A DNA stretch of 64,000 bases, taken from the NCBI RefSeq assembly GCF_003334405.1, contig NZ_QOWM01000007.1; one strand, given 5' to 3'. This DNA is from Escherichia coli. Its GTDB lineage: Bacteria; Pseudomonadota; Gammaproteobacteria; Enterobacterales; Enterobacteriaceae. The notes beneath the pieces are model-generated. The model saw only the letters and a list, made by a program, of their open reading frames with translations, was not told the DNA's origin and searched no databases. Positions 5,746-46,541 of the stretch are shown one piece after another (the stretch's first letter is position 1; every line of letters begins with the position of its first letter). The position numbers and the translations under genes were made by a program.

Positions 5746-6564
5746 ATGAAACTGACAACACATCATCTACGGACAGGGGCCGCATTATTGCTGGCCGGAA
5801 TTCTGCTGGCAGGTTGCGACCAGAGTAGCAGCGATGCAAAACACATTAAAGTTGGCGTTATAAATGGCGCAGAACAAGATGTCGCGGAAGTCGCTAAAAA
5901 GGTGGCAAAAGAGAAATATGGCCTCGATGTTGAACTGGTAGGATTTAGCGGTTCGTTGCTACCGAACGATGCGACAAATCATGGCGAACTTGATGCGAAT
6001 GTCTTCCAGCATCGACCCTTTCTTGAACAAGATAATCAGGCGCATGGTTATAAACTGGTAGCGGTGGGAAATACGTTTGTCTTCCCTATGGCGGGTTATT
6101 CCAAAAAAATCAAAACCGTGGCGCAAATAAAAGAAGGCGCGACAGTGGCGATCCCCAACGACCCGACCAACCTTGGTCGCGCACTTTTACTGTTGCAAAA
6201 AGAGAAGCTAATTACTCTGAAAGAGGGAAAAGGGTTATTACCTACCGCGCTGGATATAACCGATAATCCTCGTCATTTGCAGATTATGGAACTCGAGGGG
6301 GCGCAGCTCCCGCGCGTACTGGATGATCCCAAAGTTGATGTAGCGATTATCAGCACCACTTACATTCAGCAGACCGGGCTTTCTCCGGTGCACGACAGCG
6401 TATTTATTGAAGATAAGAATTCGCCGTATGTGAATATTTTGGTGGCACGGGAAGATAATAAGAATGCAGAAAACGTGAAGGAATTTCTGCAATCTTATCA
6501 ATCACCCGAAGTCGCTAAAGCGGCAGAAACCATTTTTAACGGTGGCGCGGTGCCTGGCTGGTAA
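5746..6564 (+). CDS. nlpA: lipoprotein-28, methionine-binding NlpA family
   Basis: 272-aa ORF with lipobox LLAGC; matches E. coli NlpA. Confidence 0.92.
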   Translation: MKLTTHHLRTGAALLLAGILLAGCDQSSSDAKHIKVGVINGAEQDVAEVAKKVAKEKYGLDVELVGFSGSLLPNDATNHGELDANVFQHRPFLEQDNQAHGYKLVAVGNTFVFPMAGYSKKIKTVAQIKEGATVAIPNDPTNLGRALLLLQKEKLITLKEGKGLLPTALDITDNPRHLQIMELEGAQLPRVLDDPKVDVAIISTTYIQQTGLSPVHDSVFIEDKNSPYVNILVAREDNKNAENVKEFLQSYQSPEVAKAAETIFNGGAVPGW

Positions 6565-7601: not shown

Positions 7602-8786
7602 CTAAATATCTTTAATAAACAGCAGGCAAATCATCGCAATACCCAACATCCCTATCGCCAGCCAGAACAACGCATGGTAGCTCCAGATTTCAACCATAAT
7701 TCCGTCAACAGAGCCGGCGATAATCCAGCCGACGCGTGAAGTATTTGCATATAACGTTGTCGCAGAGCCTATTTTTTCAGGCATCAAGTCCTGAAAATAA
7801 AGCATGCCGATACCACAGAGAATACCAAGGAAGATGGCATTAAGAATTTGCAATTCCAGCTCAACCGCCGGAGTCGTCGCCATGAGTACGCTGGCGTAAA
7901 AACACATTCCACTCACGATAGCAATGAGCATTAATAGTCGCTTGCCAATACGTTTCATGTAATAGCCTGCGATTAACATCATCGGAATTTCCAGACCGGC
8001 AGCGATACCAATCATTTCTCCAGCCAGTTTATCGGTTAGATGCAGTTCATCAATAATAAATAGCGGCATATTTATCATGTAGAGATTATTCGCCGCCCAC
8101 ATCATTGAACAGACCACAAAAAGTAGCCGCGTATCCCGCTTCCTGTGGGTGGAGGGTAAAATTTCTACGGGTTGGGTAACGACAGGAATATTTCTTTGTA
8201 TTGATGGCAAAAACAACCAGACTATCAGTCCGCAAACAACAAATGCGATGGCAGCGGTGAGATACATCACTTTAAAACTAAATCCCATTGCCAGTTCATA
8301 AGCGAGCGGTGGCCCGATAACCCAGGCAAGCGAGATCTGAGCACGTAAAAATGTACTGAACATGACCGTCTCACGGCCTGTTCTGTCGGCGTGTTCACGG
8401 GCGAGGGCGAACATTTGCGGGTTTGCGGTGGAAGCAAAACTACTCAGAAGTACGCCCGTTGAGAGGAGAATGAAGTAGTTGCGATTCCACGCAAAAAGCG
8501 TGCAGGCCAGCACTCCAAATAAGCAACATAGCAGAATCAGTAATTTACGGTCGCCTTGTTTATCGGAGTGCCTTGCCAGAAATTGACTGACCAGAATTCC
8601 CATAATAGCGCTACCGGTGAAGAAAAAACCTACCATTATAGGACGGGCTTTCAGTTCATCTGCGAGGAATATACTTAGGGTAGGAGTCTGAAGAGCGCCC
8701 GCAATACCCGTCAGAAAGGCGACAAGTAAAAATGCCGCGGCAGTGAGATCAAGTATTTTTGATGGAGTGGTAGCCGTTTTTTGCAT
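7602..8786 (-). CDS. setC: sugar efflux transporter SetC (MFS)
   Basis: 394-aa MFS ORF matching SetC/YicK. Confidence 0.88.
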   Translation of the reverse strand: MQKTATTPSKILDLTAAAFLLVAFLTGIAGALQTPTLSIFLADELKARPIMVGFFFTGSAIMGILVSQFLARHSDKQGDRKLLILLCCLFGVLACTLFAWNRNYFILLSTGVLLSSFASTANPQMFALAREHADRTGRETVMFSTFLRAQISLAWVIGPPLAYELAMGFSFKVMYLTAAIAFVVCGLIVWLFLPSIQRNIPVVTQPVEILPSTHRKRDTRLLFVVCSMMWAANNLYMINMPLFIIDELHLTDKLAGEMIGIAAGLEIPMMLIAGYYMKRIGKRLLMLIAIVSGMCFYASVLMATTPAVELELQILNAIFLGILCGIGMLYFQDLMPEKIGSATTLYANTSRVGWIIAGSVDGIMVEIWSYHALFWLAIGMLGIAMICLLFIKDI

Positions 8787-9422
8787 TCTTCTGAATCACC
8801 GGGCGAAAAAATATAACTGAGTTACAAATAAGTACCAGTCGAATGAGTATTGTATTAAGAATTTTTGAGTATCGCTGATACAACCAGAAAGCAATGCTAG
8901 CGCAATATTATAGGGCCAGCAATTGAGATTATTAGTAAAAGCATGTTAAGAATTAATTACCGAATTTATATATTAATTATAGTAAGGCAATGAGCTATTT
9001 TTGATAGTAAAAATAAAACAAGTTGATTTGATATATTAAATGAACAAATTAATCTTGATGGCAGTCTGATTATTGGTGAAGTTTATAGTCAGTTTTTTTC
9101 GCCAGCGGTTAAAGAAATAGAATAGTCGTATAAAAAAGGGTGTTCTGGGGCGAGTAAAACAACATCTTCACCTTAATGGCGATACAGTTGGCTGAGAGTC
9201 AGCAGGGGGGCAAATCACCTGCAAATAAACACGGCGCATACTGGCGTGAATATCGCGGATGCGTTCGAGGACAGAAGAACCGACAGGCGGATTCTTCAGC
9301 CGCTCATCGTCCATCACAAAACCTTAGACCAGGTATTCCTGAAGCCGATTGAATATTGAGCAGTAGAAAATATCTGGATTGACAGTATTACAAGGGGTTG
9401 GAGAACGTCAGGAGAGGCATTT

Positions 9423-9517
9423 TGGCGGAAGATCACAGGAGTCGAACCTGCCCGGGACCGCTGGCGGCCCCAACTGGATTTGAAGTCCAGCCGCCTCACC
9501 GGAGACGACGATCTTCC
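9423..9517 (-). tRNA. selC: tRNA-Sec (selenocysteine, anticodon UCA)
   Basis: The reverse complement of 9423..9517 reads GGAAGATCGTCGTCTCCGGTGAGGCGGCTGGACTTCAAATCCAGTTGGGGCCGCCAGCGGTCCCGGGCAGGTTCGACTCCTGTGATCTTCCGCCA, the 95-nt E. coli selC tRNA with long variable arm and encoded CCA. Confidence 0.97.
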
Positions 9518-9548
9518 GCGCCTCGATTGCTACATGGAGGCGGGGCGC

Positions 9549-9554
9549 ATTATA
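9549..9554 (-). promoter_or_regulatory. candidate -10 hexamer (TATAAT) of the selC promoter with GC-rich discriminator
   Basis: Minus strand reads ...gtagcTATAATgcgccccgcc... about 30 nt upstream of the mature tRNA 5' end; the GC-rich discriminator is typical of stable-RNA promoters; -35 not clearly assignable. Confidence 0.45.
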
Positions 9555-9809
9555 GCTACTTCCTTGAGTTTCTACATCCCCCAGATCAGTTTTTTCCGCC
9601 TAATACACGCAGCGTATTATCACGAAAGCATTATAGTTCATATAAAATCCATATTTTACAATGATATATGAGCGGAATTAACGCTACCACGATCACATAA
9701 AACAAGAATCATAAATTAATAACCAGATATCGGAATATTCGCTCTCACAGGGATGGTTTACAAAATGCGTTATCGGTCTCAGCACCCCTATAGCATCAAG
9801 GAAAAGTAG

Positions 9810-11192
9810 ATGAAGAGTGAAGTGTTGTCCGTTAAAGAGAAAATTGGTTATGGCATGGGAGACGCCGCCAGCCACATTATTTTCGATAACGTAATGTTAT
9901 ATATGATGTTCTTTTATACCGATATTTTTGGCATTCCTGCCGGATTTGTCGGAACCATGTTTTTGGTCGCTCGTGCACTGGATGCGATTTCCGATCCTTG
10001 CATGGGGTTGTTGGCCGATCGAACGCGCTCTCGCTGGGGTAAATTTCGTCCGTGGGTACTGTTTGGCGCACTGCCATTTGGGATCGTCTGTGTACTGGCC
10101 TATAGCACGCCAGATCTCAGTATGAACGGAAAAATGATTTATGCAGCAATTACTTACACCCTACTTACCTTACTTTATACCGTCGTCAATATCCCTTACT
10201 GCGCATTGGGTGGTGTAATCACCAATGACCCGACTCAGCGTATCTCGCTGCAATCCTGGCGTTTTGTGCTGGCGACCGCGGGAGGCATGCTTTCTACGGT
10301 TCTGATGATGCCACTGGTTAATTTAATTGGTGGTGATAATAAACCACTCGGTTTCCAGGGTGGTATCGCGGTCCTTTCCGTGGTGGCATTCATGATGCTG
10401 GCATTCTGTTTCTTCACCACTAAAGAACGCGTTGAAGCACCACCTACAACGACGTCTATGCGGGAAGATTTACGTGATATCTGGCAAAACGACCAGTGGC
10501 GGATTGTCGGTTTACTAACCATTTTCAATATCCTGGCGGTGTGCGTACGCGGTGGAGCGATGATGTATTACGTCACATGGATTTTGGGTACGCCGGAAGT
10601 GTTTGTCGCTTTTCTCACCACTTATTGCGTGGGTAACCTGATTGGTTCCGCTCTGGCAAAACCGCTGACCGACTGGAAATGTAAAGTCACTATTTTCTGG
10701 TGGACGAACGCCCTGCTGGCAGTGATTAGCCTCGCGATGTTCTTTGTTCCCATGCAGGCCAGCATCACTATGTTTGTCTTCATCTTCGTGATTGGTGTGT
10801 TGCATCAACTGGTGACACCTATCCAGTGGGTAATGATGTCCGATACCGTCGACTACGGCGAGTGGTGCAATGGTAAACGCCTGACCGGGATCAGTTTTGC
10901 TGGCACGCTGTTTGTGCTCAAACTGGGGTTGGCCTTCGGCGGCGCTCTTATCGGCTGGATGCTGGCTTATGGCGGATATGATGCGGCAGAAAAAGCGCAG
11001 AACAGCGCCACGATTAGCATCATTATTGCGCTATTCACGATTGTTCCGGCGATCTGTTATTTGCTGAGCGCGATTATCGCTAAACGCTACTACTCACTCA
11101 CGACGCACAATCTGAAAACCGTTATGGAACAGCTGGCCCAGGGCAAACGCCGTTGCCAGCAACAATTCACCTCTCAAGAAGTGCAGAACTAA
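9810..11192 (+). CDS. yicJ: GPH-family glycoside/cation symporter (putative xyloside transporter)
   Basis: 460-aa 12-TM ORF matching YicJ; immediately upstream of yicI. Confidence 0.88.
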   Translation: MKSEVLSVKEKIGYGMGDAASHIIFDNVMLYMMFFYTDIFGIPAGFVGTMFLVARALDAISDPCMGLLADRTRSRWGKFRPWVLFGALPFGIVCVLAYSTPDLSMNGKMIYAAITYTLLTLLYTVVNIPYCALGGVITNDPTQRISLQSWRFVLATAGGMLSTVLMMPLVNLIGGDNKPLGFQGGIAVLSVVAFMMLAFCFFTTKERVEAPPTTTSMREDLRDIWQNDQWRIVGLLTIFNILAVCVRGGAMMYYVTWILGTPEVFVAFLTTYCVGNLIGSALAKPLTDWKCKVTIFWWTNALLAVISLAMFFVPMQASITMFVFIFVIGVLHQLVTPIQWVMMSDTVDYGEWCNGKRLTGISFAGTLFVLKLGLAFGGALIGWMLAYGGYDAAEKAQNSATISIIIALFTIVPAICYLLSAIIAKRYYSLTTHNLKTVMEQLAQGKRRCQQQFTSQEVQN

Positions 11193-11201
11193 GGAACGGC
11201 A

Positions 11202-13520
11202 ATGAAAATTAGCGATGGAAACTGGTTGATTCAACCTGGCCTCAATTTGATTCACCCGCTTCAGGTGTTCGAGGTTGAACAGCAGGGTAATGAAATGGTG
11301 GTCTATGCTGCCCCCCGTGATGTGCGTGAACGTACCTGGCAGCTTGATACGCCTTTATTTACGCTGCGCTTTTTCTCCCCACAGGAAGGTATTGTCGGTG
11401 TACGGATTGAGCATTTTCAGGGGGCGCTGAATAACGGTCCTCATTACCCACTCAATATTTTGCAGGACGTGAAGGTCACAATCGAAAACACAGAGCGTTA
11501 TGCTGAGTTTAAAAGTGGCAACTTAAGTGCGCGTGTCAGCAAAGGTGAGTTCTGGTCACTGGATTTTCTGCGCAACGGCGAACGTATTACCGGTAGTCAG
11601 GTGAAAAATAATGGCTACGTGCAGGACACGAATAATCAACGAAATTATATGTTTGAGCGGCTGGATCTTGGCGTTGGCGAAACAGTTTATGGTCTGGGAG
11701 AGCGCTTCACTGCCCTGGTGCGCAATGGTCAAACGGTAGAGACCTGGAACCGGGACGGCGGCACAAGTACTGAACAGGCGTATAAAAATATCCCGTTCTA
11801 CATGACTAACCGTGGTTATGGGGTACTGGTCAATCATCCCCAATGCGTCTCTTTTGAAGTGGGATCGGAGAAAGTCTCCAAAGTGCAGTTCAGCGTTGAG
11901 AGTGAATATCTCGAATACTTTGTTATCGACGGTCCGACGCCGAAAGCGGTACTTGATCGTTATACCCGCTTTACTGGTCGTCCGGCGCTGCCGCCCGCGT
12001 GGTCCTTCGGTCTGTGGCTAACCACTTCATTTACCACCAACTACGACGAGGCGACAGTAAACAGCTTTATCGATGGTATGGCGGAACGCAATCTGCCACT
12101 GCATGTTTTCCACTTTGACTGTTTCTGGATGAAAGCCTTCCAGTGGTGCGATTTTGAGTGGGACCCGCTGACTTTCCCGGACCCGGAAGGGATGATCCGC
12201 CGCCTGAAAGCGAAAGGGCTGAAAATCTGCGTCTGGATTAACCCCTATATCGGGCAAAAATCCCCCGTCTTTAAAGAGTTACAAGAGAAAGGCTATTTAC
12301 TCAAACGCCCGGACGGTTCGCTGTGGCAGTGGGATAAATGGCAGCCAGGTCTGGCGATTTATGACTTTACCAATCCGGATGCCTGCACATGGTACGCCGA
12401 CAAACTGAAAGGTCTGGTCGCGATGGGCGTTGATTGCTTTAAGACCGACTTTGGCGAACGTATCCCAACCGATGTTCAGTGGTTTGACGGTTCCGATCCG
12501 CAGAAAATGCATAACCATTATGCGTACATCTACAACGAACTGGTGTGGAACGTGCTCAAGGACACCGTTGGTGAGGAAGAAGCCGTCTTGTTTGCCCGCT
12601 CGGCCTCCGTTGGTGCGCAGAAATTCCCGGTACACTGGGGTGGTGACTGTTACGCTAACTACGAATCAATGGCGGAAAGCCTGCGCGGTGGTTTGTCTAT
12701 TGGCCTTTCAGGTTTTGGCTTCTGGAGCCACGATATCGGCGGCTTTGAAAATACCGCTCCGGCACACGTTTACAAACGCTGGTGCGCGTTTGGTTTGCTC
12801 TCCAGCCATAGCCGTTTACATGGCAGCAAATCTTATCGTGTGCCGTGGGCCTACGATGATGAGTCCTGTGATGTGGTGCGCTTCTTCACGCAACTGAAAT
12901 GCCGCATGATGCCGTATCTGTATCGTGAAGCTGCGCGTGCAAACACGCGGGGTACGCCGATGATGCGGGCCATGATGATGGAGTTCCCGGACGATCCGGC
13001 TTGTGATTACCTTGACCGTCAATACATGTTAGGCGACAACGTGATGGTTGCGCCGGTGTTCACTGAAGCGGGCGATGTGCAGTTCTACCTGCCGGAAGGT
13101 CGCTGGACACACCTGTGGCACAACGATGAACTCGACGGTAGTCGCTGGCATAAACAGCAGCACAGCTTCCTGAGTCTGCCCGTTTATGTGCGTGATAACA
13201 CTCTACTGGCGCTGGGCAACAACGATCAACGTCCCGATTACGCGTGGCACGAAGGCACGGCATTCCACCTCTTTAATCAGCAAGACGGGCATGAAGCCGT
13301 CTGTGAAGTGCCCGCTGCTGACGGTTCGGTGATCTTTACTCTAAAAGCAACACGTACTGGTAACACGATTACTGTGATTGGTGCGGGCGAGGCGAGGAAC
13401 TGGACACTGTGCTTGCGCAATGTTGTGAAAGTAAATGGTCTGCAAGGCGGTTCGCAGGCTGAAAGTGAGCAGGGGCTGGTGGTGAAGCCTCAAGGGAATG
13501 CGCTGACAATTACGTTGTAA
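11202..13520 (+). CDS. yicI: alpha-xylosidase (GH31)
   Basis: 772-aa ORF matching E. coli YicI; GH31 catalytic region (WIDMNE-like KTDFGERIP context). Confidence 0.92.
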
Positions 13521-13536
13521 TCTATTGATGGAATGC

Positions 13537-13559
13537 CGGGTACGTCTGAGTCGTACCCG
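13537..13559. terminator. stem-loop between convergent yicI and yicH (probable bidirectional terminator)
   Basis: Inverted repeat cgggtacg-tctgagt-cgtacccg seen directly between the two stop codons. Confidence 0.5.
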
Positions 13560-13572
13560 ACGAGATTGATGT

Positions 13573-15282
13573 TTACTGCACCGGCTCCGTCGATGTAACT
13601 TCACCGCTGGAAACGACGCCCGCATTCATGGTTTGAGTCACTTGCTGCTTTGCGGCGTTCACGGCATGCAATTGCCCGCTAACCGTAGGTTTCAGCGGGG
13701 CATTGGCCTGAATATCTCCACTGGCGGTAAGCTGAATATTGCCGTCGCCAGTCAACGGTAATTCAGGCCATCCCCATTGTTGCAAAATATTCACCGGCAC
13801 ACCGCGTCCATTCAGGCTGATATGGGTCTGACGTTGTGGCGTTTGTGAAACACTGGCGGTGGCTTCCAGAATGCCTTTTTCAGTAAATGCACTCAGTTCG
13901 CTGATATTCACCGTGCTGCTGTTGGCGGTCAGCGCCAGCGACGGGCGACGAACATCAACACGATTGAATGTCGCGGCGGCGGCATTCAGATTCGCCGAGC
14001 CACTCCAGACGCCCCATTTATGATCGGTAACCAGCGTCAGGTTGGCACCGTAACCATCGAGCGTGGTGAGCTGCCACGGGAAGTCAGGGTCGATATCAAT
14101 GATCAGATTGCGGCTGGCGCTAAATCTCTTCAGTTGCAGGCTGTTTAACCAACCGGGTGTCGTTTCCATCCACAACTGTTGCCAGTTTTTCGGCAAGGTA
14201 TATTCCAGCCCGGCAATTGCCGCATCATCAAGGATCAACGTTTTCCCGTCACGCAGCCAGTTCCCTGACGTTCTGACCATACCCCCTTCCCAGCGGCTGG
14301 TGAACTGGCGCAGCGCTACGCCCTGCGGGGAAAATTCCGCGTTTATAATCGGGTCAAATAAATGCAGCGAACCATAAATGAACTCGCTAGCGTTCATCGA
14401 CAGTTTGCCTTCTTGTGTCTGCCAGTCATCTTTACTGAAGGTCATGTTGCGCAAGCTGAGATCGAGGTCGGTCACCGCCCAGTCCGGACCTTGCAAACGA
14501 GCATCGATCACTTCCAGGCGACCAATCTGCAACGACGGGACAGAGCGTAATGGCGCAAAGAAGTCGGTTAGCGATTTTTCGCTTTGTAGACGGATATCCG
14601 CCATGCGCAGGTTTTCCACTTGCCAGCTGCCGTCGGCGTTACGCTGCGCGTTTCCGGTTAATGTCCCGCGCGCGATGTCGGCACCCAGGTTAGTCAGCGT
14701 AACGCGATCGTTATCAATACTGCCTTCAATCAGTACATTGGTGGCAGGAACATCATTGAGCGAAAGCGATCCGGCACTAAACTGAATCTGCGCCTTCGTA
14801 CCCAGCACTTTACCGGCTTCTGGTGACCACGGAACCACGCCGCCATTTACCCGCTGCGCGCTCAGTTTCCATTCGCTATTCGGGCTATTAAACGCCATAT
14901 CACGCAGTTGCAGACGATCGGCTTTGAACGGTAGCGGCGCGGTCTGGTCGGTGAGATTCAGCGTCCCGTTTTCCAGCAGGATGGTATCGACATGGCGTGG
15001 TTCGGTCAGTTGCCGACTACTTAGCGCAATGTCGACACTTTTGGCCACCAGGGTCGCGGGCTGGCCATCACGACCAAACGTGACATTCTCCAGCACGATA
15101 TGAGATGGCGCGGAAAAACGGTGATCCATCGCCCCGAAGGCCAGATGATAGTCGCTATTCTCGGAAACCCATGCGCTGATATGTTCTGCTCCCCAGCGGG
15201 TTTGCAGAAGAAAATAGAGGCCAGCGATCACCACTAACAGAGCGATGAGAATGTAGAGAAGCAGCTTCCCAATAAATTTCAT
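13573..15282 (-). CDS. yicH: AsmA-family outer-membrane assembly protein YicH
   Basis: ORF 13573..15306; recalled protein starts MKFIGKLLLY (569 aa), i.e. the ATG at 15282; N-terminal TM anchor. Confidence 0.85.
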   Translation of the reverse strand: MKFIGKLLLYILIALLVVIAGLYFLLQTRWGAEHISAWVSENSDYHLAFGAMDHRFSAPSHIVLENVTFGRDGQPATLVAKSVDIALSSRQLTEPRHVDTILLENGTLNLTDQTAPLPFKADRLQLRDMAFNSPNSEWKLSAQRVNGGVVPWSPEAGKVLGTKAQIQFSAGSLSLNDVPATNVLIEGSIDNDRVTLTNLGADIARGTLTGNAQRNADGSWQVENLRMADIRLQSEKSLTDFFAPLRSVPSLQIGRLEVIDARLQGPDWAVTDLDLSLRNMTFSKDDWQTQEGKLSMNASEFIYGSLHLFDPIINAEFSPQGVALRQFTSRWEGGMVRTSGNWLRDGKTLILDDAAIAGLEYTLPKNWQQLWMETTPGWLNSLQLKRFSASRNLIIDIDPDFPWQLTTLDGYGANLTLVTDHKWGVWSGSANLNAAAATFNRVDVRRPSLALTANSSTVNISELSAFTEKGILEATASVSQTPQRQTHISLNGRGVPVNILQQWGWPELPLTGDGNIQLTASGDIQANAPLKPTVSGQLHAVNAAKQQVTQTMNAGVVSSGEVTSTEPVQ

Positions 15283-15402
15283 GGTCTTCCATCCCGTGAA
15301 ATGCACATAAGGGAGTTATGCACGATTTACGCGCAATCCTCAAGGCGGGAATGGTGAAAGAGGTGAGACTGCGGCGGTAATTATCTTACCGCCGCCAGTG
15401 AA

Positions 15403-45679: not shown

Positions 45680-46489
45680 ATGAAGAATATTAGATACATT
45701 GACAAAAAAGATGTTGAAAACCTGATAGAAAGTAAAACGTCTGATGATGTTATTATTTTTCTTTCCGGCCCCACATCGCAAAAAACACCATTGTCAGTGC
45801 TGCAGACAAGGGATGTTATTGCTGTCAATGGTTCTGCACAATATCTATTAAGTCATAATATTATTCCCTATATTTATGTACTTACCGATGTTCGCTTTTT
45901 ACATCAACGGCGTGATGATTTTTATAAATTTAGCCAGAGAAGTCGTTATACCATCGTAAATGTTGACGTTTATGAACATGCTTCTGAAGAAGATAAGCGG
46001 TACATCCTTCAAAACTGCCTGGTACTACGTTCATTTTACCGCAGAGAAAAAGGTGGATTGATCAAGAAGATCAAGTTTAATATTTTGAGCCGAATTCATA
46101 AAGAGCTCCTGATCTCTGTACCTTTTTCTAAAAAAGGTCGTCTGGTTGGCTTTTGCAAGGATATTAACCTCGGTTATTGTTCATGCCATACCGTTGCTTT
46201 TGCTGCAATCCAAATAGCCTATTCGCTGAAGTATGCTCGTATTATCTGTTCAGGCCTTGATTTAACGGGTAGCTGTTCGCGTTTCTATGATGAAGATAAG
46301 AATCCTATGCCCTCAGAGTTGACTCGGGATTTATTCAAAATTTTACCATTTTTCCGTTTTATGCGTGAAAATATAGAAGATATCAATATTTATAATTTAT
46401 CCGACGATACTGCAATTCAATATGATATTATTCCCTATATGAAAATATCCGAAATTGAAGAGCCGTGTGTTTATGAAAAAATAAGCTAA
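45680..46489 (+). CDS. waaZ: LPS core biosynthesis protein WaaZ (Kdo III-related)
   Basis: 269-aa ORF starting MKNIRYIDKKDVENL, collinear with recalled WaaZ. Confidence 0.8.
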   Translation: MKNIRYIDKKDVENLIESKTSDDVIIFLSGPTSQKTPLSVLQTRDVIAVNGSAQYLLSHNIIPYIYVLTDVRFLHQRRDDFYKFSQRSRYTIVNVDVYEHASEEDKRYILQNCLVLRSFYRREKGGLIKKIKFNILSRIHKELLISVPFSKKGRLVGFCKDINLGYCSCHTVAFAAIQIAYSLKYARIICSGLDLTGSCSRFYDEDKNPMPSELTRDLFKILPFFRFMRENIEDINIYNLSDDTAIQYDIIPYMKISEIEEPCVYEKIS

Positions 46490-46541
46490 TATTTTATATG
46501 TGTTTATTACGTGTTATAAATTATATTGGAGTTGGCTAATA

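Follow-up and report, generated by a model that had tools for sequence, protein, structure and literature searches.

Gene content and context of the locus

The window analysed here, 64 kb of Escherichia coli DNA, carries on its plus strand yicJ (9810..11192; 460 aa, ATG start), which encodes a cation:sugar symporter of the GPH family (TC 2.A.2) that putatively imports alpha-xylosides, followed by yicI (11202..13520; 772 aa, ATG start), which encodes a cytoplasmic GH31 alpha-xylosidase. An SD sequence (AAGGA, 9798-9802, + strand) precedes yicJ, and selC, the gene for tRNA-Sec(UCA), lies on the minus strand at 9423..9517 (ARAGORN; Rfam RF01852 at 83.8 bits), divergent from yicJ and 292 bp away from its ATG. 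The initial annotation had described a symporter gene followed 9 bp later by an alpha-xylosidase gene next to selC, with no regulator gene adjacent; its ORF coordinates are exact, the 9-bp spacing (11193-11201) and the position beside selC are correct, and the annotations across the window give no adjacent regulator. No gene for a sugar transcription factor is annotated in the whole 64-kb window, nor does the window hold any xyl catabolic genes, and xylR lies about 96 kb away from yicJI. In an Rfam E-value search of 8700-13800 the only match was tRNA-Sec; neither a riboswitch nor a leader RNA was found. As both reading frames are long and have full-length family matches, yicJ and yicI are not chance ORFs.

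The gene pair and its operon are already known and are ordinary features of K-12, where the same locus (b3657-b3656; YicI PDB 1WE5, 1XSI/1XSJ/1XSK, 2F2H) differs in nothing substantive: 290 of the 292 bases of the selC–yicJ spacer are identical and the neighbours setC, the rhuM/yicT remnant, selC, yicH and xanP are shared. Strain ML35 matches the window at 99.94% identity, and over the segment 9400-13650 the match to ML35-like genomes, the closest to this strain, is 100%. With the pair present in 5,395 of 5,426 complete E. coli genomes, yicJI is a core-genome locus of the species. ExPEC strains carry the frz island between yicI and yicH, which is absent here, and a genomic island at selC was ruled out, the rhuM pseudogene remnant alone being present.

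The YicJ and YicI proteins

YicJ scores 1056 bits against the NCBIfam GPH transporter equivalog NF008526 (cut-off 836) and 520 bits against the GPH family model TIGR00792 (cut-off 231), and is 100% identical to YicJ of K-12. YicI scores 1429 bits against the NCBIfam alpha-xylosidase equivalog NF007940 (cut-off 606). The symporter and alpha-xylosidase identities proposed at the outset are thus borne out by equivalog scores far above cut-off, and the K-12 annotation ('putative xyloside transporter YicJ' and 'alpha-D-xyloside xylohydrolase') agrees.

The full-length alignment of YicJ with the 12-helix MelB structures (E 1e-55) makes it likely that YicJ has 12 transmembrane helices, and a crude hydropathy scan gave about 10-12 merged hydrophobic segments. 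MelB R52, D55, D59 and K377, which we take to form the cation site including the helix-II Asp pair, have conserved counterparts in YicJ R55, D58, D62 and K371, as does MelB T121 in T124; MelB N58 aligns with S61, and the identity of the coupling cation is unreadable from the aligned residues. At MelB D19, D124 and W128, presumably sugar-contact positions, the alignment places H22, N127 and C131 of YicJ, and because these counterparts differ the specificity of the transporter is unreadable from homology. YicJ is described here only as a putative alpha-xyloside transporter.

YicI matches PDB 1WE5/1XSI/2F2H over its full length (1843 bits), and the GH31 domains PF13802, PF01055 and PF21365 are recorded for its cluster representative, which is 98% identical, and for orthologues. 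Inspection of the residues placed D416 in KTDFGE and D482 in HWGGD, which we take to be the catalytic nucleophile and the acid/base, respectively, of the YicI structures. Visual inspection of the N-terminus (without a predictor) revealed no signal-peptide-like hydrophobic stretch, from which it follows that the substrate of YicI must be imported. Activity of K-12 YicI as an alpha-xylosidase on isoprimeverose and xyloglucan oligosaccharides has been described (Okuyama 2004 and Carneiro 2022, as cited elsewhere). The earlier statement that the substrate of the pair is poorly defined holds for the transporter but passes over the published in-vitro specificity and structures of the enzyme.

Operon structure and 3' end

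The yicJ–yicI junction (11193..11201, + strand, 9 nt) is too small to fit a terminator, and none was found there in a terminator scan (six terminator-like matches against 4.5 ± 2.3 in shuffles); the SD sequence of yicI (AAGGA, 11191-11195, + strand) overlaps the yicJ stop codon. The compact two-gene unit foreseen by the initial annotation is upheld by the common strand, the terminator-free 9-nt junction and the retention of this arrangement across genera, and the prediction that yicJ and yicI form a single transcription unit is supported. The name 'yicJI metabolic operon' occurs in the title of Reperant 2011, and a fitness phenotype of a delta-yicJI strain is reported for growth in LB without added xylosides.

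Downstream of yicI, which converges with yicH across a spacer of 52 bp, this spacer contains a GC-rich hairpin (CGGGTACG-N7-CGTACCCG, 13537..13559) with an RNA fold of -18.1 kcal/mol (z = -1.74; 12 of 200 shuffles were equally stable). It has no T-run and was not called in the terminator scan, and is a possible transcript-end structure.

A conserved block upstream of yicJ

Two parts of the selC–yicJ spacer are conserved in a ten-locus alignment of enterobacteria: the selC leader and -10 region (9518-9557, 0.88-1.0) and a block at 9691-9740, which is kept alike whether the first gene is yicJ or yicI. The block begins with GATCACAT (9691..9698, + strand), in which TCACA is invariant in the 10 loci and GATCACA is present in 9 of them. 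This may be the right half of a CRP site whose centre would lie some 82 nt before the predicted TSS, an assignment taken solely from the consensus TGTGA-N6-TCACA, to which the left half corresponds weakly. Next comes a direct repeat of two tandem units with a period of 21 bp (9701..9736, + strand), AACAAGAATCATAAA at 9701-9715 and ACCAGATATCGGAAT at 9722-9736; it abuts a weak -35, and we predict it to be a XylR operator.

The repeat was scored with a tandem of the xylF operator unit ACCAAAAATCGTAAT, a probe that, it should be noted, was picked post hoc, once the resemblance had been noticed. The segment 9701..9736 scores 23/30, and the homologous place scores 21-24/30 in 10 of 10 loci, in each of which the match is specific for position, strand and spacing; shuffled sequences reach 16.7 ± 1.0, and 0 of 300 attained the score of 9701..9736. 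Besides the xylF operator itself this is the sole match of at least 21 in the 64-kb window plus 201 kb of loci (about 265 kb), and the reciprocal probe retrieves the xylF operator only. The same probe did not detect the xylA operator, gave no tandem match of at least 19 at the K-12 yagG promoter (the intended positive control), and a generic local alignment of the selC–yicJ spacer with the xylF–xylA spacer was not significant (35 of 500 shuffles as good); of the two approaches, the tandem of operator units was the informative one. The published XylR operator consists of two direct repeats adjoining a poor -35 over about 37 bp, and the geometry of 9701-9715/9722-9736, which ends at the predicted -35, fits it. 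The xylFGHR and xylAB promoters likewise have a tandem repeat of 21-bp period set against a poor -35, and the yicJ repeat units match the distal xylF unit at 11-13 of 15 positions; yicJ has a single candidate operator, whereas xylF and xylA have a divergent pair that could loop.

A candidate -10 hexamer (TACAAA, 9759..9764, + strand) is conserved as TA[C/A]AA[A/C], with GGTTTA[C/A]AA kept in most loci, and its distance from the end of the operator is compatible with a spacer of 17 bp. The proximal TSS is predicted near 9771. A scan for consensus sigma-70 promoters over 9300-13800 gave 0 sites against 5.1 ± 2.5 in shuffles, which fits an activator-dependent promoter. A LacI-type palindrome, TGTAACCGGTcTCA, at approximately 9771-9784 was dropped as a candidate: it is a good palindrome in Salmonella, Enterobacter and Lelliottia, whereas E. 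coli, Cronobacter and Franconibacter have it in degenerate form.

XylR control of yicJ has already been predicted computationally (Laikova 2001, as cited elsewhere), and the searchable literature yielded no experimental evidence for control of yicJI by xylose or XylR. The published prediction and the repeat together make XylR, the xylose activator encoded at a distance, the most likely candidate for the missing regulator of yicJI. That the regulator is poorly defined, as the initial annotation put it, is accurate for experimental regulation but overlooks a published sigma-E promoter, H-NS and RpoD sites and the 2001 XylR prediction.

Distal sigma-E promoter and other published signals

A sigma-E (sigma-24) promoter, GAACAA-N17-TCTGA, is present at 9042..9075 (+ strand), with G9075 as its TSS; from there it is 735 nt to the yicJ ATG. 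This sigma-24 TSS was determined experimentally in K-12 and assigned to yicJ (K-12 3836664, equivalent to window 9075), yicJ is among listed sigma-E promoters (PMC3326320), and the K-12 sequence around the promoter is identical to window 9031-9085. Position 9075 sits on the far side of selC from yicJ, and a transcript starting there would cross selC in antisense. Reg-Seq has described three activator-like regions, a '(3,0) architecture', for 'yicI'; we rejected these as support for two XylR sites plus CRP, as their coordinates are counted from the sigma-E TSS, window 9075. Shimada 2014 places H-NS and the hexamers of constitutive RpoD promoters in the selC–yicJ spacer. Both hexamer pairs are present (TTATCA-18-TATAAA, 9617-9646, + strand; TTGTAA-20-TATAAT, 9661-9630, - strand), although by their geometry the gene assignment of the two pairs appears swapped in the published table. 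Lying in a poorly conserved part of the spacer, they were set aside as evidence for a yicJ promoter.

Conservation across genera and loss of yicJ

The yicJ–yicI pair with a junction of 3-12 bp was found in 8 of 11 loci examined, all eight beside selC (Escherichia, Salmonella, Kosakonia, Franconibacter, Cronobacter, Lelliottia, Siccibacter and Enterobacter roggenkampii). In Enterobacter cloacae and two Buttiauxella species yicJ is missing and yicI retained, with the same promoter block directly preceding yicI; for E. cloacae the absence was shown to be a deletion. As yicJ can be lost while yicI is kept, YicI is not strictly dependent on YicJ. Beyond the 3' end of selC the other genera examined carry differing, island-like gene sets. 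Cronobacter is the exception to the lack of a xylose regulator gene beside the pair: there, an avtA-malS-bax-xylR block comes directly after yicI.

Comparison with related systems

The xylP-xylQ pair of Lactobacillus pentosus (Chaillou 1998, J Bacteriol 180:2312, as cited elsewhere), which reportedly serves the use of isoprimeverose, shares with yicJI a common logic of disaccharide import followed by cytoplasmic splitting. The Lactobacillus genes presumably adjoin xyl genes and are under a repressor-type XylR, unlike yicJI, where the regulator is not adjacent and is predicted to be XylR, an activator of the AraC type that would act in trans. In both loci a GPH transporter gene precedes a GH31 alpha-xylosidase gene, and XylQ and YicI are both called homologous alpha-xylosidases in the literature. 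Within E. coli the closest paralogue family of YicJ is YagG (NF007237, 495 bits). The yagGH genes of prophage CP4-6 (GPH transporter plus GH43) likewise place the transporter before the glycosidase, with a junction of 11 bp, but unlike yicJI they have an adjacent regulator, XynR, and are now annotated for xylonate, and the yagG promoter, searched with the same probe, is without the xylF-like tandem seen at yicJ.

Discussion

The explanation that we consider probable is that yicJI imports and splits small alpha-xylosides and is induced via XylR. YicJ, as a GPH cation symporter, would take up small alpha-xylosides, of which isoprimeverose (alpha-Xyl-1,6-Glc), derived from plant xyloglucan via other organisms, seems the most plausible, and YicI, as a cytoplasmic retaining GH31 enzyme, would cleave off the non-reducing alpha-xylose. 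Both genes would be translated from one mRNA transcribed from a weak, activator-dependent proximal promoter with a XylR-type tandem operator at its -35 and possibly a CRP half-site upstream, the sigma-E promoter 735 nt upstream being separate. Xylose released by YicI would then induce the operon through XylR, which would place yicJI in the xylose regulon.

Instead of XylR, a different regulator (another AraC-type activator, or H-NS/Fis on A-rich DNA) could bind the conserved tandem, or the tandem could act solely as an UP-like element, leaving yicJI outside the xylose regulon. Such a reading would accommodate a post hoc probe that misses the xylA operator and yagG, a generic spacer alignment that is not significant, the H-NS and RpoD hexamers of Shimada 2014 in the same spacer and a searchable literature in which expression data on xylose or XylR control are absent. 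We nevertheless regard it as unlikely, given a match that is specific in 10 of 10 loci and unique in about 265 kb, a 21-bp tandem beside a poor -35 that reproduces the published XylR geometry, and the independent published prediction (Laikova 2001). As for the sigma-E promoter, the experimental sigma-24 TSS assigned to yicJ with its near-consensus motif, and the three activator-like Reg-Seq regions around 9075, are what would be expected if it were the main source of transcription and yicJI an envelope-stress pair that is not sugar-induced. This we hold to be very improbable, as the transcript must traverse 735 nt including antisense selC, and the region beyond selC varies in gene content between genera, all of which, among those examined, have kept the proximal block.

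There is also some doubt as to whether YicJ and YicI, though co-expressed, form a dedicated isoprimeverose/xyloglucan pathway, as they might serve other glycosides or routes, or act mainly in general fitness. To our knowledge E. coli has no xyloglucanase; the counterparts of the MelB sugar contacts D19, D124 and W128 differ in YicJ, and yicJ is deleted in E. cloacae, with yicI under the same promoter, and absent in two Buttiauxella. The fitness effect of delta-yicJI reported in LB points the same way. On the other hand an alpha-xylosidase in the cytoplasm depends on import of its substrate, 8 of 11 loci retain both genes 3-12 bp apart, and genes in the same order reportedly serve isoprimeverose use in L. 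pentosus (Chaillou 1998, as cited elsewhere), so that we give the non-dedicated alternative only a small chance of being correct.

Much of yicJI is textbook K-12 (the genes, the enzyme structure, the operon) and in that sense the locus matters little. The value of the present analysis is modest and concerns a gap in annotation: XylR, encoded far from the pair and acting through the operator-like repeat at 9701-9736, is the probable identity of the absent regulator. If XylR control is true, an alpha-xyloside branch would be added to the xylose regulon, and E. coli would have a defined route to xyloglucan breakdown products in the gut. Whether yicJI is, more broadly, an experimentally overlooked member of the XylR/xylose regulon that provides enterobacteria with a product-induced scavenging loop for cross-feeding on xyloglucan fragments, isoprimeverose among them, set free by other microbes of the gut or of plants, we judge to be evenly balanced. 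The independent losses of yicJ are a natural experiment on the need of YicI for YicJ, and if the scavenging loop is real, the repeated loss of yicJ under a kept operator would show that YicI has a YicJ-independent role.

The yicJ–yicI gene pair

The open reading frames of yicJ (9810..11192, + strand, 460 aa) and yicI (11202..13520, + strand, 772 aa) lie exactly where the initial annotation had placed a GPH symporter gene followed after 9 bp by an alpha-xylosidase gene, and the ORF positions and family matches bear out that interpretation of the pair as real. The two genes are tightly coupled: only nine nucleotides (11193–11201) separate them and the AAGGA ribosome-binding site of yicI overlaps the stop codon of yicJ. 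YicJ reaches 1056 bits against the NCBIfam equivalog NF008526 (GPH-family transporter) and 520 bits against TIGR00792, the model of the GPH family, aligns end to end with Salmonella MelB structures (E 1e-55) and is 100% identical to K-12 YicJ. YicI, a GH31 enzyme, scores 1429 bits against the alpha-xylosidase equivalog NF007940, and its entire length matches PDB 1WE5, 1XSI and 2F2H (1843 bits). Asp416 (KTDFGE) and Asp482 (HWGGD) are both present in YicI, and from its structural literature we take them to be the nucleophile and the acid/base, respectively. By layout the closest analogue is the isoprimeverose gene pair xylP–xylQ of Lactobacillus pentosus, from which yicJI differs in regulator type and regulator position.

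yicJI is an already known, well-characterised E. coli operon. The K-12 annotation has ‘putative xyloside transporter YicJ’ and ‘alpha-D-xyloside xylohydrolase’; the alpha-xylosidase activity of YicI (Okuyama 2004) and its selective hydrolysis of xyloglucan oligosaccharides (Carneiro 2022) are taken here from a citing paper. Reperant et al. (2011) name the pair the yicJI metabolic operon, Rodionov et al. also bear on it, and XylR control of yicJ was predicted computationally in 2001 (Laikova, as cited). Several E. coli genomes are 100% identical to the region 9400–13650, and 5,395 of 5,426 complete genomes contain it at a coverage of at least 80%. Overall the window shares 99.94% identity with strain ML35, from which it also differs by a single 26-nt indel at some point beyond position 6449; waaZ, annotated as frameshifted in ML35, corresponds to about 45680–46490 of the window in the waa cluster.

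Conservation of the locus and loss of yicJ

YicI orthologues (82–89% identity) occur throughout the Enterobacteriaceae, and selC was divergently upstream in all ten loci where it was sought. yicJ lies 3–12 bp before yicI in E. coli, Salmonella, Kosakonia, Franconibacter, Cronobacter, Lelliottia, Siccibacter and Enterobacter roggenkampii. It is missing altogether in one Enterobacter cloacae chromosome and two Buttiauxella species, in which selC is followed directly by yicI and the conserved promoter block stands directly before yicI (E. cloacae locus L003, 7932–8000; Buttiauxella loci L005 and L012). In E. cloacae the last 45 nt or so before yicI are a remnant matching the 3′ end of yicJ in E. 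roggenkampii, the former stop codon reading CAG instead of TAA; the transporter was thus lost through a clean internal deletion in yicJ, which joined the promoter region to yicI. At least two lineages have lost yicJ independently, with yicI kept under the same control region.

Between setC and selC lies a RhuM-family pseudogene remnant (9183–9344, − strand; yicT in K-12); Kosakonia has an intact rhuM in the corresponding position (L004, 4267–4932), and several genera carry SymE-toxin and DUF3950 genes next to selC (L003, L004, L005 and L008). Together these look like the vestige of an old selC-associated island. On the other side, yicI and yicH are convergent and only 52 bp apart (13521–13572), with a GC-rich hairpin at 13537–13559. 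This gap is the site of the 7.2-kb frz sugar operon in ExPEC strains (GR 27 of strain BEN2908), and the frz island is absent from it in the window. The longest yicH ORF (13573–15306, − strand) has a GTG start and encodes 577 aa, the RefSeq start being 24 nt downstream (13573..15282, 569 aa); the AsmA-family protein YicH matched none of the NCBIfam models.

A predicted XylR operator in the selC–yicJ spacer

The initial annotation was also right that no regulator gene is adjacent: none of the genes annotated in the 64-kb window encodes a sugar-responsive transcription factor, and in no genus compared does a regulator gene adjoin yicJI or yicI. In the nearly identical ML35 genome about 96 kb separate xylR from yicJI. 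In Cronobacter turicensis the avtA–malS–bax–xylR block, about 96 kb away in E. coli, directly follows yicI (L007, 8373–14293), and xylR is thus about 5 kb from the operon.

ARAGORN and Rfam agree in placing selC (tRNA-Sec) at 9423..9517 on the − strand, so that a 292-bp spacer separates it from the divergent yicJ. Alignment of ten such spacers reveals two conserved parts, the selC leader and −10 region (9518–9557) and a block at 9691–9740 (column identity 77–92% versus about 55% elsewhere), the latter followed by a shorter GGTTTA[C/A]AA at 9755–9763. The block keeps its conservation with either yicJ or yicI as the first gene, an argument for one promoter serving both. Inside it are two direct repeat units on the + strand with a 21-bp period, in E. 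coli AACAAGAATCATAAA (9701–9715) and ACCAGATATCGGAAT (9722–9736). XylR operators are about 37 bp long and consist of two direct repeats beside a poor −35 (Ni et al.). The xylF operator of the same strain supplied its promoter-distal unit, ACCAAAAATCGTAAT, as a probe, two copies being sought 20–22 bp apart. In all ten spacers the best match lay at the corresponding position, on the strand that reads into yicJ and with a spacing of 21; the scores were 21–24 of 30 against 16.7 ± 1.0 in dinucleotide shuffles (0 of 300 as high), figures to be read with a probe chosen post hoc, once the resemblance had been seen, and with orthologous spacers that are non-independent samples. At a threshold of 21, the 64-kb window and 201 kb of fetched loci held no further match except the xylF operator. 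The absent regulator is probably XylR acting in trans at a predicted operator at 9701–9736.

The conserved TACAAA at 9759–9764 is a candidate −10 and the repeat ends at its expected −35 position, a geometry that predicts a transcription start site (TSS) near 9771, and the conserved GATCACAT at 9691–9698 is a possible half-site for class-I CRP binding. A consensus scan found no strong sigma-70 promoter, as expected for an activator-dependent promoter. The tables of Shimada 2014 list H-NS and constitutive RpoD promoter hexamers for this spacer. Both hexamer pairs are found in the window, overlapping one another on opposite strands at 9617–9661; by geometry the + strand pair faces yicJ and the − strand pair faces selC, whereas the Shimada table assigns them the other way round.

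Proposed mechanism and alternatives

Small alpha-xylosides such as isoprimeverose would be imported by YicJ and YicI would free xylose and glucose from them; xylose-bound XylR, probably with CRP, would then switch on the operon, giving a product-induction loop linked to the xylose regulon. By inspection YicI has no signal-peptide-like N-terminus and is presumably cytoplasmic. At positions that we take to be the cation-site and sugar-contact residues of MelB, YicJ R55, D58, D62, T124 and K371 align with R52, D55, D59, T121 and K377, and H22, N127 and C131 differ from D19, D124 and W128. Alternatively, the substrate of YicJ may be some other glycoside, or YicI may have a role independent of YicJ, as the two losses of yicJ suggest.

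The conserved repeat may also bind a protein other than XylR: neither the xylA operator nor the K-12 yagG promoter was detected by the xylF-unit probe, and generic local alignment of the control regions was not significant. The reciprocal probe, made from the yicJ unit, had the xylF operator as its sole match in the 40-kb xyl locus. Expression may instead come mainly from a sigma-E promoter. In the Reg-Seq supplement the ‘yicI’ construct is centred on a sigma-24 TSS that was determined by experiment, K-12 3836664; this is position 9075 of the window, the two sequences being identical there. A near-consensus sigma-E promoter, GAACAA-N17-TCTGA (9042–9075 with its TSS, + strand), ends 6 nt before G9075, between setC and selC and 735 nt upstream of yicJ; a transcript from it would run antisense to selC before reaching yicJ. 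The three activator-like regions in Reg-Seq surround this TSS and were rejected as support for the proximal operator, as they belong to the distal promoter. To the known operon the analysis adds a XylR operator candidate at 9701–9736, a documented sigma-E promoter upstream and independent losses of yicJ.
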